From Nitrosopumilaceae archaeon (GTDB lineage Archaea > Thermoproteota > Nitrososphaeria > Nitrososphaerales > Nitrosopumilaceae), in the NCBI GenBank assembly GCA_965200155.1, contig CBDATR010000024.1:96001-160000 (forward strand): 64,000 nt of DNA, read 5' to 3'. Every line of letters begins with the position of its first letter. The stretch's first letter is position 1. Positions 1,092 through 63,583 of the stretch are shown piece by piece. The notes under the pieces are model-generated. The model was not told the origin of the DNA. It was given only the letters and a program-made list of their open reading frames with translations, and made no database searches. A program made the translations under genes and the position numbers.

Positions 1092-1507
1092 GTATGAGTT
1101 CACGTGTTTTGATCATTAACTAAGATATAGATTGGTATGACAATATTTTGCTTAAATACCAAATTTGCAATAAGAATCTAATGAGAAGACGCCTGTCCTA
1201 TAAGGAATTGGAACTAAAAAATAAGCTTCTTTAGGATACCCTTGCGTCTACCAAGAAAGAACTTGCACATTACAAGGAGAATGAGTGAGAGATAAAACGT
1301 GGAGACATAATACTTGCGTTTACCAAGAAAGAACTTGCACATTACAAGGCAGAGGCCATGGGCCGCCTTGTCCTACGTCTTGCGGCCACCGAGAAAGATC
1401 TTGCACATTACAAGGAACGTGTGAGAGTATTGGAAACACATATGTCACGCATCACAGAAGAAATACAAAATCTCACACAAGATTTCCAAATTATTAGGAA
1501 TTATGTA
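1092..1507 (+). mobile_element. IS66 left-end fragment, degenerate
   Basis: Left TIR GTATGAGTTCACGTGTTTTGATCA at 1092; matches 61548 onward but carries a stop and inserts. Confidence 0.9.
1241..1415 (+). repeat. CRISPR-like mini-array: 3 x 37-bp repeats (1241-1277, 1313-1349, 1379-1415) with 35- and 29-bp inserts
   Basis: Repeat CTTGCGTCTACCRAGAAAGAWCTTGCACATTACAAGG is single-copy in intact IS66 copies (44982-45018, 61697-61733). Confidence 0.85.
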
Positions 1508-1885
1508 GTATGAGTTCACGTGTTTTGATCATATGATATGATAGAATGCATCCGAGTTTTTTTAATTATAACTGCATTCTTATAGCAACCTCATGCTTGT
1601 ACTGGAGGGATGGTGGAGAGTGAGCATTCTCATATAAGCCGAGCCATGATTACCGCAATTTTCCCTTGTTTTCCTTCCAATTCATTTACATAATTTCTAA
1701 ACGCATTTTTTCTATGTTATGTCTGCTTCTTACACGTTCCTTGTAGTGTGCAAGATCTCTCTTGGTAGACGCAAGGGTATCCGGAGATTTGCAGTTCCTC
1801 ATGGCCGGCGTCTGCTCATACTACAATTTAACCAAATATTGTCATATCAAGTTTCATCGTATGATCAAAACACGTGAACTCATAC
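1508..1885 (-). mobile_element. Internally deleted non-autonomous IS66 derivative (378 bp)
   Basis: Both 24-bp IS66 TIRs present; interior is a patchwork of 5' and 3' transposase fragments; no TSD. Confidence 0.85.
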
Positions 1886-2129
1886 ACATTTGGTTCATAT
1901 CCCTGATTACGTGATTGCCATCGTGTTTGATATTGCGTAACACGCATGCTTTTTGCGTATCTCGCTCTGGGAATACAATACGTGATTAGACCGTATGCGC
2001 AGAATCACTTCTCCCACCCTGCACGTCTAAACCAAGTTGTTAGATACGAACAATTGACCTAGTATCATGGGTTTTCCCACAGACTCATGTGAAACAGAAA
2101 AGTTAAGACCTAATTTTGTAATACCAGGT

Positions 2130-3685: not shown

Positions 3686-4248
3686 TGGAGTGGGCCCTGC
3701 GCTTGAGAATGTTTTTTGTAATTTTCTAGGCACAGCTATTTACCTACATTTTGGACGATGTGTTGCCCTTTTTGCTTCTTTCGGAGAACTCCACGGGAGG
3801 GACATATCCTAGTGCTAAGTGTATCCGGGAGTGATTGCAGTCGTTTTTATCATCGTTCTCTTGTAACATCTTTTTCATTTCAGAATTTTGGGATCTTGGG
3901 TTTCTGTCCAATTCCTCAGAACAGGCCTTTGGGAATCTCGCCCTCCACGTGTATAGTGTGCGGGGCGATATGTTGTTCCGCCTGCAGATCTCTGCGGTGA
4001 CTGCTGTCGAGTCTAAGGTTTCCAATGGTATGAGTTCATCTGTGTCTAAATTTACGCATAACTGATGGAACAGGTTGTTCTAGTTAATGTGATTTGTGCA
4101 CAAGATTCCGGAAGACGTGAACTCATACTTCCAATGACCTTCTCCTCCCGACTCCATTGGTGTTTTTTGTCAACCATGGCACACTCCCCCTCTTGAATCC
4201 AAAAAGTGTGAGTTGATATCTATTCTCAATGTCATGGGGCACCGGCCA
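3686..4248 (-). mobile_element. IS3-family element, internally deleted (OrfA fused to OrfB tail)
   Basis: TG...CA ends with imperfect IRs; 4-bp DR ATAC; OrfA HTH from ATG 4177 (WSREEK...AEICRRNNISPRTLYTW); OrfB tail HSRIHLALGYVPP. Confidence 0.75.
4028..4128 (-). mobile_element. MITE copy 2, 101-bp variant (in IS3 orfA)
   Basis: TSD TTCCAATG; central CGCGAC replaced by GGAACAGGTTGTTCT. Confidence 0.96.
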
Positions 4249-8886: not shown

Positions 8887-8994
8887 AACCATTTAGGTTA
8901 CTCCATTGAAGGATAGCTCAATTTGGTGAGCCGCTTCACTCCATACCGGATCACCCAAAACCGTTTAGGTTACTCCATTGAAGGATAGCTCAAT
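8887..8994. repeat. Direct repeat 36 bp x2 (8887-8922, 8959-8994) with 36-bp spacer
   Basis: AACCRTTTAGGTTACTCCATTGAAGGATAGCTCAAT, one mismatch. Confidence 0.9.
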
Positions 8995-32913: not shown

Positions 32914-32985
32914 GGTGAGGTGGCAGAACGGTTATGCGTGGGCCTGCAGAGCCTATACAAGAGGGTTCGACTCCCTTCCTCACCT
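32914..32985 (+). tRNA. tRNA-Cys(GCA)
   Basis: Acceptor GGTGAGG/CCTCACC; anticodon arm TGGGC-CTGCAGA-GCCTA; GTTCGA T-loop; T-run follows. Confidence 0.95.
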
Positions 32986-40795: not shown

Positions 40796-40873
40796 GCCAA
40801 TGTAGCTCAGCCTGGCTAGAGCATTCGCCTTGTAAGCGAAAGGTCGCGGGTTCGGATCCCGTCATTGGCTCCA
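40796..40873 (+). tRNA. tRNA-Thr(TGT), CCA encoded
   Basis: Acceptor GCCAATG/CATTGGC; anticodon arm TTCGC-CTTGTAA-GCGAA; TTTAAA TATA at about 40763. Confidence 0.95.
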
Positions 40874-44921: not shown

Positions 44922-46539
44922 ATGAGAAGACGCCGGTCCTATAAGGAATTGGAACTGGAAAATAAACTTCTTCAGGATACCCTTGCGTCTACCGAGAAAG
45001 ATCTTGCACATTACAAGGAACGTGTGAGAGTATTGGAAGCATATGTGTCCCGCACCACAAAAGAAATACGAAATCTCACACAAGATTTCCAAATGTATGA
45101 GTTCACGTCTTCCGGAATCTTATGCACAAATCACATTAACTGTCGCGATCAATTGTGCGTAAATTTAGACACAGGTGAACTCATACTTCCAAATTATTAG
45201 GAATTATGTAAATGAATTGAATGAGAAATTAAAAGAAAAACAGGGGAAAATTGCGGTACTCACAACGCGACTTAAATATTATGAGAATGCTCACTCGCCA
45301 CCATCCCTTCAATCCCTCCAGTACAAGAAGCGAAAACAGGAGGAGCAGAAGCGAAAACAGGGAGATAATAAGCAACAGAAAGAAGCCAGTACGAAATCAG
45401 CCAAAAAGGCTGGCGCGCAAAAGGGACACAAGGGGGTTTCCCGTTCCCACAACCCCGGCAGAGTAGTGCATCACACCTTTGAGTACACACCAATATGTGA
45501 GTGCGGCAATATAATGACAAAAATTGGTTGGAAACAACGACACATAACGGAATTAATACCAGCCAAAATAGAGGAGACCCTTCATGTGATAGAAATGGCT
45601 GCATGCAAGTGCGGCAAAAAACAACTGGCCCCAGCAGCGGGCGTCCCAAAGAGTGGTGATTTTGGAGTTCAATTATGCGGTGCCATCACTGCATTGCGTG
45701 CGGAAAAGATTCCAATAAAACGCATACCTGTAATTTCGAAGGATCTCTTCGGCCTAAATATATCGGTGGGTGCAGTAAACAACATAATTGCCAGGGCCGC
45801 CGATGCATGTGAATCATTTATGGAAACAATTCATGAGAATATAATAAAATCACCCAGCATTCATGTGGACGAAACTGGTATATCACTGGCGGGTAGGCGT
45901 GGCTGGGTATGGGGGATGCGAGCCGAAGAGTGGATGATATACAAAAGTAGGAGTTCAAATGTAGTGAACAAATACCTGAACGGTTACCAGGGAGCGATAG
46001 TAACGGACAGGTACGTTGTGTACCGCCGGTTTGATGACGGTGGGAAGCACCAGTTGTGTTGGGCGCATTTATTGCGCGATACCCAGGCATTACATGCAGG
46101 ATTCTATATCGATCCCGGTGCTCAGGACGCCCGGATCAAACTTGACAACGACCTGAAAGGATTGTTCCGGAGCGCACGGGAATCCCTGAATCACTGCGGG
46201 CCGTCCGCGCAATTACGACACTCATTTGAGACAGGAGCAGAATCCATTCTGCATCAGTACTGTGATGTTGATGATACTGAACTACAAAAGAAGGTAAAAG
46301 GATTGAATAAGGCCATACCATGCATGTTCGTATTCTTAGAATATGACTGTGTAGAGCCCACCAACAATCCAGCGGAGCAGGCTTTGCGATACGCAGTGGT
46401 ATTCCGCAAGATTAGTGGTCAGATAAAGGGTGGCGAAAGGGCAATGCGCCGCATGTCTACATTTGTATCATGTGTTCAGACATGGAGGGCTCAAGGCCTT
46501 TCTGTTATGAACGAGGTTGCTGCCAGAATGCAGTTATAA
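44922..46539 (+). pseudogene. IS66 transposase, interrupted by MITE, intact C-terminus
   Basis: Coiled coil, PPS, GAQKGHKG, Zn finger, DDE, AEQALRYAVVFRK. Confidence 0.9.
45095..45186 (+). mobile_element. MITE copy 10 (in IS66 tnp)
   Basis: TSD TTCCAAAT. Confidence 0.97.
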
Positions 46540-47369
46540 TTAAAAAACTGGGACGCATTTGCCAGGGCCGCCGATGCATGCGAATCATTTATGAAAACAA
46601 TTTATGAGAATATAATAAAATCACCCAGCATTCATGTGGACGAAACTGGTATATCACTGGCGGGTAAGCGTGGCTGGATATGGGGGATGCGGGCCGAAGA
46701 GTGGATGATATACAAAAGTGGGAGTTCATATGTAGTGGACAAATACCTGAACGGTTACCAGGGCGCGATAGTCACAGACAGGTACGTTGTGTATCGCCGG
46801 TTTGATGACGGTGGGAAGCACCATCTGGGCGCATTTATTGCGCGATACCAGTATATTACATGCAGGATTCTATATCGATCCCGGTGATCAGGACGCCCGG
46901 ATCAAACTTGACAACGATTTGATCCGGAGCGCACGTGAATCGCTGCGGGCCGTCCGCGCAATTACGACACTCATTTGAGGCAGGAGCAGATGCATCAGTG
47001 CTGTGATGTTGATGATACTGAACTGCAAAAGAAGGTAAAAGGATTGAATAAGGCCATACCAGGTATGTTCGTATTCCTAGAATATGACAGTGTGGAGCCC
47101 ACCAACAATCCGGCGGAGCAGTGGAACCGGTTCTGATACGCAGTGGTATTCCGTAAGATTAGTGGCCAGATAAAGGGTGGTGAAAGGACCATGCGCCGCA
47201 TGTCCATATGTGTTCAGACATGGCGGGCTCAGGGCCTTTCTGTAATGAACGAGGTTGCTGCCAGAATGCAATTATAATTAAAAAACTGGGATGCATTCTA
47301 TCTTATTATGTGATCAAAACACGTGAACTCATACAATGTTTTAGTGTCTAAATTGTACCAATAATTGTG

Positions 47370-47544: not shown

Positions 47545-47832
47545 TTGGCGAGCCGGAGCGCGACACGCTGCTAACGCAGAGGAAACTCCTCCCTCCTGGC
47601 AGGAAGCGCGACCCGGAGACAGGTAGTTGGAGACAACTGGCGACGGCACAGAAACCAGTCCTCCCCTCATACAATGAAGGCCAACGCCGGAGGTTCGGGG
47701 ATATAGGACGTGAAAAGGCCGACCCGCGCGGAGAAAGGCCAAACAAGACCTTAGCATCCTGCCGCAGGTCTAGGTAGGCCGCATAGCTAAATATCGCTAG
47801 AAACAGAAGGAGGGTTACTTCCGGCGCGCCAA
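47545..47832 (+). ncRNA. rnpB: Archaeal RNase P RNA
   Basis: P1 TTGGCG.GCCGGA/TCCGGC.CGCCAA; P4 GAGGAAACTCC ... AACAGAAGGAGGGTTA; ACAGAAA loop; TATA-like TATTAAAA upstream. Confidence 0.93.
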
Positions 47833-60335: not shown

Positions 60336-60443
60336 GTCTCCGGACGGCTCGCTAGGCGTCTAAACATATGCTTCCAGCTCACTGGGAACCAGCGTTGCCG
60401 GATGAACGTCTCCGGACGGCTCGCTAGGCGTCTAAACATATGC
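60336..60443. repeat. CRISPR-like unit: identical 36-bp repeats (60336-60371, 60408-60443) with 36-bp spacer
   Basis: GTCTCCGGACGGCTCGCTAGGCGTCTAAACATATGC; internal GACG/CGTC stem; reverse strand ends in GAGAC; no cas genes. Confidence 0.9.
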
Positions 60444-61226: not shown

Positions 61227-61547
61227 TTTGTCCAGATCATGACGGTGTTTAATTAAAGCCTTTGTTACACATTAGACCTTATGCGCATGATTGACAGTAA
61301 CAGCTTAGGTTGCTTCAAACTGGGGTGTATTTTATGGTACACAATCCGTCAAGCATAAACAATGTGAATAACATCTGCCAGCACTAACGTATGCCGTGAT
61401 TGCAAATGTCGTGTAGTGGGGCGACTGGATCTTGATGACATATATCATGAGTGAGCTAAACGGTTATCACAAAACCCATTAATTTAGTGGATTTTCTGAT
61501 GAGTAATATTCGAATTATAATATCACGGAAATTATGGACAGATATTT

Positions 61548-63219
61548 GTATGAGTTCACGTGTTTTGATCATTCACTAAGATATAGATCGGTATGGCAAT
61601 ATTTTACTTAAATACCAAATTTGCAATAAGAATCTAATGAGAAGACGCCGGTCCTATAAGGAATTGGAACTGGAAAATAAACTTCTTCAGGATACCCTTG
61701 CGTCTACCGAGAAAGATCTTGCACATTACAAGGAACGTGTGAGAGTATTGGAAGCATATATGTCACGCATCACAGAAGAAATACGAAATCTCACACAAGA
61801 TTTCCAAATTATTAGGAATTATGTAAATGAATTGAATGAGAAATTAGAAGAAAAACAGGGGAAAATTGCGGTACTCACAACGCGACTTAAATATTATGAG
61901 AATGCTCACTCGCCACCATCCCTTCAATCCCTCCAGTACAAGAAGCGAAAACAGGAGGAACAGAAGCGAAAACAGGGAGATAATAAGCAACAGACAGAAG
62001 CCAGTACGAAATCAGCCAAAAAGGCTGGCGCGCAAAAGGGACACAAGGGGGCTTCCCGTTCCCACAACCCCGGCAGAGTAATGCGCCACACCTTTGAGTG
62101 TGCTCCAATATGTGAGTGCGGCAATATAATGACAAAAATTGGTTGGAAACAACGACACATAACGGAATTAATACCAGCCAAAATAGAGGAGGCCCACCAT
62201 ATGATAGAAATGGCTGCATGCAAGTGCGGCAAAAAACAACTAGCCCCAGCAGCGGGCGTCCCAAAGAGTGGTAGTTTTGGGGTTCAATTATGCGGTGCCA
62301 TCACTGCATTGCGTGCGGAAAAGATTCCAATAAAACGCATACCTGTAATTTCGAAGGATCTCTTCGGCCTAAATATATCGGTGGGTGCAGTAAACAACAT
62401 AATTGCCAGGGCCGCCGATGCATGTGAATCATTTATGGAAACAATTCATGAAAATATAATAAAATCACCCAGCATTCATGTGGACGAAACTGGTATATCA
62501 CTGGCGGGTAGGCGTGGCTGGGTATGGGGGATGCGAGCCGAAGAGTGGATGATATACAAAAGTAGGAGTTCAAATGTAGTGAACAAATACCTTAACGGTT
62601 ACCAGGGAGCGATAGTCACAGACAGGTACGTTGTGTATCGCCGGTTTGATGACGGTGGGAAGCACCAGTTGTGTTGGGCGCATTTATTGCGCGATACCAG
62701 TATATTACATGCAGGATTCTATATTGATCCCGGTGCTCAGGACGCCCGGATCAAACTTGACAACGACCTGAAAGGATTGTTCCGGAGCGCACGGGAATCC
62801 CTGAATCACTGCGGGCCGTCCGCGCAATTACGACACTCATTTGAGACAGGAGCAGAATCCATTCTGCATCAGTACTGTGATGTTGATGATACTGAACTAC
62901 AAAAGAAGGTAAAAGGATTGAATAAGGCCATACCATGCATGTTCGTATTCTTAGAATATGACTGTGTAGAGCCCACCAACAATCCAGCGGAGCAGTGGAA
63001 CCGGTTCTGATACGCAGTGGTATTCCGCAAGATTAGTGGCCAGATAAAGGGTGGCGAAAGGGCAATGCGCCGCATGTCTACATTTGTATCATGTGTTCAG
63101 ACATGGAGGGCTCAAGGCCTTTCTGTTATGAACGAGGTTGCTGCCAGAATGCAGTTATAATTAAAAAAAACTGGGATGCATTCTATCATATTATGTGATC
63201 AAAACACGTGAACTCATAC
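61548..63219 (+). mobile_element. Complete single-ORF IS66 element (1672 bp)
   Basis: 24-bp TIRs; 8-bp TSD AGATATTT. Confidence 0.96.
61637..63010 (+). CDS. IS66 transposase, ending at premature in-frame TGA
   Basis: 457 aa; lacks the last 49 residues present in 45175-46539. Confidence 0.85.
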   Translation: MRRRRSYKELELENKLLQDTLASTEKDLAHYKERVRVLEAYMSRITEEIRNLTQDFQIIRNYVNELNEKLEEKQGKIAVLTTRLKYYENAHSPPSLQSLQYKKRKQEEQKRKQGDNKQQTEASTKSAKKAGAQKGHKGASRSHNPGRVMRHTFECAPICECGNIMTKIGWKQRHITELIPAKIEEAHHMIEMAACKCGKKQLAPAAGVPKSGSFGVQLCGAITALRAEKIPIKRIPVISKDLFGLNISVGAVNNIIARAADACESFMETIHENIIKSPSIHVDETGISLAGRRGWVWGMRAEEWMIYKSRSSNVVNKYLNGYQGAIVTDRYVVYRRFDDGGKHQLCWAHLLRDTSILHAGFYIDPGAQDARIKLDNDLKGLFRSARESLNHCGPSAQLRHSFETGAESILHQYCDVDDTELQKKVKGLNKAIPCMFVFLEYDCVEPTNNPAEQWNRF

Positions 63220-63491
63220 AGATATTTTTCAAGAATTTCTTGTATCTGGTATGCTTGTGCATAATGTGTAAATTATGCAACCCGGATACTACGAGTAGAT
63301 CTTCCCGGAATTCCTCACGAATGCCATCATATACCTGACTTAATCTACGATATACCTTTAGCATTCGAATTACATGCTCGATTAATGTGCGCCTTTTTGA
63401 TACATATTGGTTGTATTTCCTTTCAGTGTTAGTGAGTGATTCCCTACCCCTGTATGGAATTATGACCTTTGCGCCGGGTAGGAAGTCTTTC

Positions 63492-63583
63492 GTATGAGTT
63501 CACCTGTGTCTAAATTTACGCACAACTGATCGCGACAGTTAATGTGATTTGTGCACAAGATTCTGGAAGACGTGAACTCATAC
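63492..63583 (-). mobile_element. MITE copy 13
   Basis: Intact TIRs, no TSD. Confidence 0.95.

Follow-up and report, generated by a model that had tools for sequence, protein, structure and literature searches.

To our knowledge, the main evidence for the birth of a CRISPR array comes from one laboratory study in Escherichia coli. Mini-arrays that sit on mobile elements usually carry repeats like the CRISPR repeats of the host. Isolated or orphan CRISPR arrays were reportedly described by Shmakov et al. (2020, CRISPR J 3:535), and viruses also carry mini-arrays. Off-target integration has been put forward as the origin of some such arrays. Here we analyzed a 64,000-nucleotide (nt) stretch of the genome of a Nitrosopumilaceae archaeon (contig CBDATR010000024.1 of assembly GCA_965200155.1, positions 96,001 to 160,000; hereafter the window, to which positions without a contig name refer). 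It contains a mini-array whose repeat is a piece of the transposase gene of an IS66-family insertion sequence (IS). Like orphan mini-arrays, this array is short and far from cas genes, and some of those also lie on mobile elements; unlike the mini-arrays of mobile elements, it has a repeat that codes for part of a transposase and is identical to the host repeat at 15/36 positions. We conclude that the array, and others of its kind in this genome, were very probably made by off-target spacer integration by the Cas4/1-Cas2 proteins of the resident type I-G CRISPR system, i.e. that they are 'neo-CRISPR' arrays.

Off-target spacer integration that seeds neo-CRISPR arrays has been described for the type I-E system of E. 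coli (Nivala, Shipman and Church 2018, Nat Microbiol 3:310), and papers citing that work credit it with circumstantial evidence for two other species. As those papers describe it, the likeness is that Cas1-Cas2 inserts at a non-CRISPR site, duplicates a target of repeat length and can seed an array. The E. coli arrays relied on induced adaptation genes in a laboratory strain, whereas those described here are natural products of an archaeon that is uncultured and has a Cas4/1 fusion of type I-G, and they occupy about 43 sites in one genome, one of them within an IS66 transposase gene that still looks mobile. With the Cas1-Cas2 of Pyrococcus furiosus in vitro, off-target spacers enter repeat-like non-CRISPR sites, and points distributed over the repeat sum to specificity (PMC6698737). 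That system was in vitro and plasmid-based, whereas the products here are chromosomal and their targets are partly like the repeat, at six of its positions.

The Geobacter type I-U/I-G Cas4/1 module is a close parallel on the side of the adaptation machinery. A TTN protospacer-adjacent motif (PAM) was reported upstream of about 50% of its unique spacers; in the naive assay the host chromosome was the origin of about 30% of the unique spacers, spacers were of 36 bp, and the non-PAM end joins the leader side (PMC6547450; PMC10504553). The Cas4/Cas1 fusion, Cas2 and the 36-bp spacers are common to that module and the one described here. Those studies treat the canonical leader-repeat site, and the term 'off-target' is absent from the text of both papers. 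Ectopic spacer acquisition within arrays is known from Streptococcus thermophilus; insertion there is also away from the leader-proximal repeat but stays inside the true array (PMC7999890). In the literature searched, we found no natural genome with dozens of such products, nor such an array in an IS transposase.

The array and the related IS66 features of the window are as follows.

1092 to 1506, plus strand: 5' fragment of an IS66-family element, with the left terminal inverted repeat at 1092 and the transposase ATG at 1181
1241 to 1276, plus strand: repeat 1, apparently the newest 36-nt IS66 copy, encoding LASTKKELAHYK and 35/36 identical to repeat 2
1277 to 1312, plus strand: spacer A (36 nt), which copies a segment of the host's gene for family-B DNA polymerase
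1313 to 1348, plus strand: repeat 2, the second 36-nt copy of the IS66 target
1349 to 1378, plus strand: spacer B, 30 nt here, apparently the oldest insert and common to most arrays
1379 to 1414, plus strand: repeat 3, apparently the oldest copy, with ancestral G13 and T21, running on into native transposase coding sequence
1507 to 1897, minus strand: nested reverse IS66 internal-deletion derivative, resembling a miniature inverted-repeat transposable element (MITE), with a single 36-mer at 1740-1775 that represents the unfilled state
44982 to 45017, plus strand: unfilled single 36-mer in another IS66 copy, from a mismatch search of the window
61697 to 61732, plus strand: unfilled single 36-mer in a near-complete IS66 copy (61547-63220), from the same search

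The starts of the three copies were placed at 1241, 1313 and 1379, with spacings of 72 and 66 nt. At 1241-1414 we observed near-identical direct repeats with unique spacers of similar length between them. All three repeats are in frame with the transposase open reading frame (ORF) starting at 1181, and the unit encodes LAS/ATE/KKD/ELAHYK, part of the N-terminal coiled coil of the transposase. The ORF of this fragment is dead (stops TAG at 1232-1234 and TGA at 1286-1288), and the fragment is cut at 1506 by the nested reverse derivative. In the near-complete copy, PF03050 (DDE_Tnp_IS66) matches at 61637-63004 with an E-value of 2.2e-31.

The original prediction was of a 37-mer present three times here and once each at 44982 and 61697, with two inserts, and with derived bases in the first two repeats against ancestral ones in the third. 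Searches of the window and of the genome found all of this as described, except for the length of the unit. The 37-mer has five window matches at up to three mismatches (1241, 1313, 1739 on the minus strand, 44982 and 61697; shuffled sequences gave an expectation of 0.00), and the array copy at 1379 has more than three mismatches and hence lies outside these five. The repeat itself is real, but its unit is 36 nt, since two other arrays have A or T as base 37. The duplicated unit is CTTGCG...TACAAG, and the resident CRISPR repeat is also of 36 nt.

We then considered the IS66 36-mer across the genome, in a search that allowed up to 7 substitutions. There were 89 matches in 66 loci, of which 51 were single, 8 double, 6 triple and 1 quadruple. 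Arrays of 2-4 copies are present at 15 loci against 51 single-copy loci that keep the ancestral state, which bears out the proposal that the array was built de novo from IS66 coding sequence. Six mutually unrelated inserts were found at this one site, four of 36 nt (A, B, D and E) and two of 37 nt (C and F). The latter two add 73 nt and occur once each. Insert B is 36 nt long in four other loci, and the 30-nt form in the window is a 6-nt in-frame deletion. In the arrays with at least two different inserts (orders A-B and E-F-B), B was always distal and the newer inserts lay on the IS-left side, in agreement with the predicted growth at the IS-left end. The two repeats flanking the insert are identical in the C and D arrays, and in the E-F-B array repeats 1-3 are identical while the fourth differs. 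Because six unrelated and spacer-sized inserts are found with identical flanking repeats and with B distal, the 36-mer site has been used at least six times; B, C and D entered elements that were previously single-copy, and additions occurred at one end. The earlier suggestion that the same site was hit more than once is borne out by these inserts.

The same genome contains a type I-G CRISPR system on contig C9 (loci in this genome, G000, are given by contig and position). A Cas4g/Cas1g fusion (NF049935) was found at 710.7 bits against a cut-off of 560, covering 546/546 profile positions, with an open frame of 555 amino acids (aa); it is the single Cas1 in the assembly. Next to it are Cas2, a leader rich in AT and an array with 289 repeats. 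Cas3g, a Cas3-extension protein, Csb2 and Csb1/Cas7g lie beyond the array on the opposite strand. The adaptation genes Cas4g/Cas1g and Cas2 are intact, in the same genome as the IS66 arrays. The true repeat is the 36-mer ATTTCCGCAGCCTAACGGTTGCGGCCTCATTGAAGG. The 288 spacers are mostly of 37 nt (101), 36 nt (85) and 38 nt (63), giving periods of 73, 72 and 74 nt, respectively. The lengths of the duplication (36 nt) and of the inserts (36-37 nt) in the IS66 array equal the resident repeat and spacer lengths. The IS66 array itself is on contig C24 inside an ORF and the cas locus is on C9, so that neither cas genes nor a leader adjoin it.

Only 2/288 true spacers match the genome outside the array. 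One of these two overlaps an off-target insert at C25:4797 and not any source locus: the insert of the footprint at G000:C25:4760-4868 overlaps the true-array spacer at C9:75210 by 26-28 nt on the opposite strand. This insert and this spacer have sampled one common source DNA.

Two further observations concern the cas region. A three-repeat array with 37-nt spacers lies between cas4/1 and cas2 (G000:C9:70403-70587, L001 19403-19587); its repeat is a different 37-mer whose minus-strand reading ends CTGAAAG. An 891-aa protein near the cas interference genes (L002 8753-11428, minus strand, equal to G000:C9:100753-103428) weakly matches the anti-phage DUF1156 family, at 162 bits against a cut-off of 1000.

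The geometry of the IS66 arrays recurs all over the genome. We scanned for exact direct repeats at offsets of 30-200 nt with the true array excluded, and observed 7, 28, 18, 7 and 7 repeat events at offsets 71, 72, 73, 74 and 75, while other offsets average 1.6. Exact repeats of 34-40 nt numbered 46 at offsets 71-75 versus 45 across the 146 other offsets between 50 and 200. Among the 68 events at offsets 70-76, exact repeats of 36 nt (17) and 37 nt (19) are the most frequent, as would be expected if a duplication of 36 nt were at times extended by one base by chance. When a clean event was defined as an exact run of 33-40 nt at an offset of 71-75, 47 clean events were counted at 43 sites, each with an insert of its own, and the exact run was at least 36 nt in 44 of them. 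For 21 of the 47 inserts another genomic locus aligns over at least 28 bases and is taken as the source, mostly at 100% identity over the full length. Self DNA thus makes up 21/47 of the off-target inserts versus 2/288 of the true-array spacers. A peak at offset 82 in the histogram was also considered as a footprint and rejected, as it consists of ordinary 41-nt tandem repeats.

Two such footprints are in the window, neither assigned to a strand.

60336 to 60443: footprint at a non-IS66 site, with a perfect 36-nt duplication (60336-60371 and 60408-60443) and a 36-nt insert
8887 to 8994: footprint with a 36-nt duplication (35/36) around a 36-nt insert

The insert at 60336-60443 matches G000:C24:85416-85451 at 36/36. 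For the insert at 8887-8994 no genomic source was found, and the duplicated unit there has CTCCATTGAAGG mid-unit, a near-match to the 3' end of the true repeat. A three-repeat off-target array is also present at C24:237593-237780.

These footprints behave as insertions. When one repeat and the insert were removed in silico, ORFs were reopened for an Mrr-type nuclease (407 aa), an amidohydrolase (495 aa), the upstream end of a serine hydroxymethyltransferase (523 aa) and a dihydroorotate dehydrogenase (326 aa). In-frame events keep their ORFs open, e.g. at C22:16729 (599 aa versus 575 aa). The ortholog of this protein in G005, a genome of the same genus, has one motif copy and is without the 24 extra residues, and the ortholog in G009 has an unrelated low-complexity stretch at that position. 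Periods divisible by three were seen in 22/42 non-IS66 events versus 100/280 in the true array (Fisher p = 0.042), and this excess of in-frame events fits selection against frameshifts.

Some off-target loci have a history of their own. A second hot spot was seen in one 36-mer of another multi-copy element (G000:C13:35858, C34:161231 and C34:37400), which carries three different inserts with periods of 73, 72 and 78 nt. At G000:C9:44444-44836 there is an off-target array of about six repeats, in which one period-73 unit with the same spacer is amplified four to five times. Its last unit has a different spacer, whose source is C10:414241-414277 (35/37). The amplified unit indicates that such arrays can also grow by recombination.

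The sources of two of the IS66 inserts could be traced. Insert A is found at G000:C24:21284-21319, with 36/36 identity in the arrays at C10:6462 and C10:210309 and 35/36 in the window copy. The source ORF matches PF00136 (DNA_pol_B) at an E-value of 1.1e-52, and a TTG lies directly 5' of the match in this polB gene. The 36-nt form of insert B matches G000:C1:23455-23490, in a pentose-phosphate gene, just past the ribulose-phosphate 3-epimerase domain. The original prediction had proposed an alignment of the inserts to IS66 or flanking DNA as the outcome that would speak for ordinary duplication; they match other host genes instead. Sequencing-run contigs leaving insert A at 1312 continue with polB sequence beyond the protospacer, which links this insert to polB independently. 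Within the IS, both A and B keep the reading frame that they have in their source gene. This agreement probably reflects survivorship, in that a stop-free insertion of 72 nt leaves the transposase open.

We further examined what the off-target sites have in common with the true repeat. The mean best identity of off-target 36-mers to the true repeat was 12.8, against 11.07 +/- 0.32 for random genomic 36-mers (z = 5.4, reached in 0/2000 resamplings), a likeness that is significant but weak. Positions T2, T3, C5, C11, C12 and C26 were enriched in the targets (z 2.2 to 4.3), and the IS66 36-mer has all six of them. The I-G repeats of relatives are of 36 nt and have ATTTCCG...CGGCCCCATTGAAGC in common, so that four of the six positions (T2, T3, C5 and C26) belong to its conserved stretches. 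Compared in forward orientation, the 15/36 identity of the IS66 36-mer to the true repeat has a probability of 0.038 of being equalled or exceeded by a random 36-mer. A likeness of the 3' end to CRISPR repeats had been pointed out before: the last bases are CATTGAAGG in the true repeat and CATTACAAG(G) in the IS unit. This likeness is real but modest, given the overall identity. The forward orientation of the IS66 site agrees with the repeat likeness, the growth at the upstream end and the TTG 5' of the source of A.

The IS66 unit is without a stable hairpin. Its fold has -4.1 kcal/mol (z = 0), as against -14.3 kcal/mol (z = -2.7) for the true repeat, and for this reason the processing of IS66 arrays by the I-G Csb2 protein is doubtful. 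An Rfam search gave no CRISPR-DR family at threshold for the IS arrays, nor for the start of the true array, and was uninformative.

The filled elements appear to have spread. Unfilled full-length IS66 copies encode 508 aa. The copy at C43:71556 is complete (1742 nt, about 66 nt longer than the 1674-nt window copy), with both terminal repeats and a 530-aa ORF that runs through repeat-B-repeat. Its 8-bp flanks, CCTAATTT and ACTAATTT, match at 7/8 by eye, a near-identical target-site duplication. Left flanks vary among the filled copies, with at least three for the A-B arrays and at least four for the B-only arrays, which indicates that arrays were copied after they had formed. From their sequences, the in-frame arrays look to be riding in IS66 copies that are able to transpose. 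Many array-bearing copies, the window copy included, are decayed.

Other IS66-related DNA was noted in the window. MITE-like elements of about 90 nt, with the IS66 terminal repeats GTATGAGTTCAC, are present at about 2150-2241, 4029-4130, 45095-45186, 63493-63575 and from 63932 to the end of the window; the one at 45095-45186 sits inside an IS66 ORF. A diverged second partial IS66 3' half at 46560-47330 directly follows the copy ending near 46550, and is either a tandem partial duplication or a nested remnant. The window also contains an archaeal RNase P RNA at 47548-47829 (179.1 bits) and two tRNA genes at 32914-32985 and 40796-40870. The small-subunit rRNA scored 1437.6 bits with the archaeal model versus 1093 with the bacterial one, and over half of the sequence words sampled from the region are present in runs labelled as sponge metagenome.

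The presence of the array was also evaluated in sequencing runs. Logan contigs from two DNA runs and one RNA-library run, together with raw reads of a fourth run, cover the region and its junctions, which answers the call for read support in the original prediction. Pieces from the runs span repeat 1 into insert A, and repeat 2 through insert B into repeat 3. The raw reads number 3-7 per strand over 1279-1371. Three raw reads carry a joint that skips 138 nt, and these most likely come from other, unfilled IS66 copies rather than from an allele of this locus.

Together, these observations fit the following course of events. A type I-G Cas4/Cas1 fusion with Cas2 normally adds spacers of 36-38 nt at the leader end of the array, duplicating the 36-nt repeat. 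In this genome it would have used instead a 36-mer of the IS66 transposase that partly resembles the true repeat. Staggered joining at both ends of the 36-mer, followed by gap repair, would give a duplicated 36-mer with the captured fragment in between. Spacer B may have entered first and spacer A, the polB piece, later at the IS-left repeat. As a repeat with a 36-nt spacer makes 72 nt and is in frame, the transposase gene would have stayed open in some filled copies, which could then take the array elsewhere by transposition, and the window copy would have decayed after its array had formed. Judged by the duplication length, the insert length, the intact genes and the captured DNA, the array would be an off-target Cas1-Cas2 product. 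It stands outside the canonical cas-linked processable arrays because its repeat family and cas adjacency differ. The arrays are best seen as by-products; an immune function is unlikely, as the unit is without a stable hairpin and the spacers are host-derived, and they probably do not work as immune loci.

Several results weigh against this explanation. The link to Cas4/1-Cas2 as the enzyme is one of geometry and co-occurrence, and at 87.64% completeness the assembly could be missing a second integrase. A TTN was found beside the source on one side in 7/22 cases, where a hand estimate gives about 3/22 by chance. The orientation given by TTN and that given by repeat likeness agreed in two and disagreed in four of the six testable cases, and the source flanks of the 22 cases gave no single PAM motif; the true PAM of the organism is not derivable, since only 2/288 true spacers match the genome. 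No similarity was found between the IS upstream region and the true leader (best local alignment p = 0.35). For inserts C, D, E and F the genome assembly offers no source, the exact 24-nt cores of C, D and E had 0 matches in viral contigs, and the match of B to its source is only 31/36. A search for the IS pattern with two repeats returned 0 records from genome_contigs and 0 from metagenome_contigs, from which records of this genome itself may be excluded. Because the locus is multi-copy, allele frequencies are unreadable from the reads.

A related genome also counts on this side. Among 41 genomes searched, Cas4g/Cas1g was above the cut-off in 6, this one included, and G005 has the same kind of I-G system. 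In a 400-kb sample of G005 we counted 22 exact repeats of 30-44 nt at offsets of 40-200; none was at offsets 71-74, and the three at offset 75 were all within tandem-repeat tracts. By the same criterion this genome has 51 events at 71-75, and about 8.6 would be expected per 400 kb (hand arithmetic). This shortfall indicates that a heavy load is not general to such systems. We infer that the lineage has an unusually active or lax module, or that it tolerates insertions, the latter being suggested by the heavy IS load of the genome. The IS 21-mer was present in 0/40 relatives searched.

We also noted that the 9-mer GAATTGGAA is shared by the sequences upstream of the true array and of the IS site. 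Leader mimicry was rejected, as the best local alignment does not exceed chance (p = 0.35) and comparisons with a fixed anchor showed nothing.

A wider claim would be that an active IS is both the cradle and the vehicle of new CRISPR arrays, with the 36-mer as a repeatedly used polar site, the transposase tolerating repeat-spacer units that are in frame, and the proto-arrays therefore copied by transposition. We consider this possible but doubtful.

Two alternatives have small chances of being right. In the first, another integrase (a second Cas1 or a casposase-like enzyme, unassembled or on a lost element) and not the resident I-G module did the work. The incomplete assembly would allow this, as would the small array with a different 37-nt repeat between cas4/1 and cas2 and the lack of a consistent TTN PAM. 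It is improbable all the same, since the assembly has a single Cas1, the 36-nt duplication and the 71-75-nt period exactly fit the I-G array, and the targets share specific positions with the I-G repeat.

In the second, the IS-borne mini-arrays were off-target in origin but are now functional, being transcribed with the transposase mRNA into guide RNAs or otherwise selected. The polar growth and the spread of filled copies would suit this, and a contig of the RNA library covers repeat 1 and insert A, where DNA carry-over is possible. It is set against the missing hairpin, the match of A and B to host genes (unlike nearly all true spacers) and the decay of many copies, the one in the window among them, and we give it little credence.

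A third explanation, which we consider highly improbable, is that slippage or unequal crossing-over duplicated the segment coding for the coiled coil in tandem and in frame, and that the stretches between the conserved 36-mers diverged afterwards. In its favor, the repeats keep the reading frame and their spacings (72 and 66 nt) are divisible by three, and the array at C31:2830 has insert A twice, like a secondary duplication of a repeat-spacer unit. We judged local alignments of A and B to IS66 against shuffles. Insert A gave p = 0.12 with the native 60 nt 3' of repeat 3 and p = 0.89 with the whole IS66 copy, so the patchy similarity to downstream IS sequence once noted for this insert did not hold up. 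For insert B the values were p = 0.93 (native downstream 60 nt) and p = 0.13 (whole copy). A diverged tandem duplication was rejected: the units are not homologous over their full length, and no insert is related to another insert or to the IS. Moreover, A is polB at 36/36, two of the six unrelated inserts at the site are of 37 nt and hence out of frame, and a like footprint is seen at 43 unrelated sites.

An assembly or chimeric-read artefact is scarcely credible even for a repeat-rich, metagenome-derived genome in 51 contigs with short Logan contigs over the region, since identical arrays occur on several contigs with different flanks, two other DNA runs, the RNA-library run and the raw reads of the fourth run cover the insert-repeat junctions, and an artefact would not recreate a 36-nt duplication with a 36-37-nt insert at 43 sites.

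Off-target integration by the resident Cas4/1-Cas2 is therefore the explanation that we favor. On the origin of new CRISPR arrays, this genome offers dozens of natural, datable products that we attribute to off-target activity of a Cas4/1 fusion. The IS66 hot spot combines independent hits, polar growth and the ancestral state within one genome. The footprints make it possible to ask which repeat positions the integrase reads, with T2, T3, C5, C11, C12 and C26 as candidates. They likewise allow tests of capture ahead of selection (21/47 self, against 2/288 in the true array) and of the cost of stray integration, as in the in-frame enrichment and in some broken genes. A mobile element can, in addition, spread nascent arrays. 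If the IS is indeed a cradle of arrays, the roughly 45 other footprints would be an unselected record of type I-G capture, nearly half of it host DNA, unlike the true array with its selected content; and if some of the arrays are transcribed and processed, the birth of a CRISPR array would have been caught on a mobile element.

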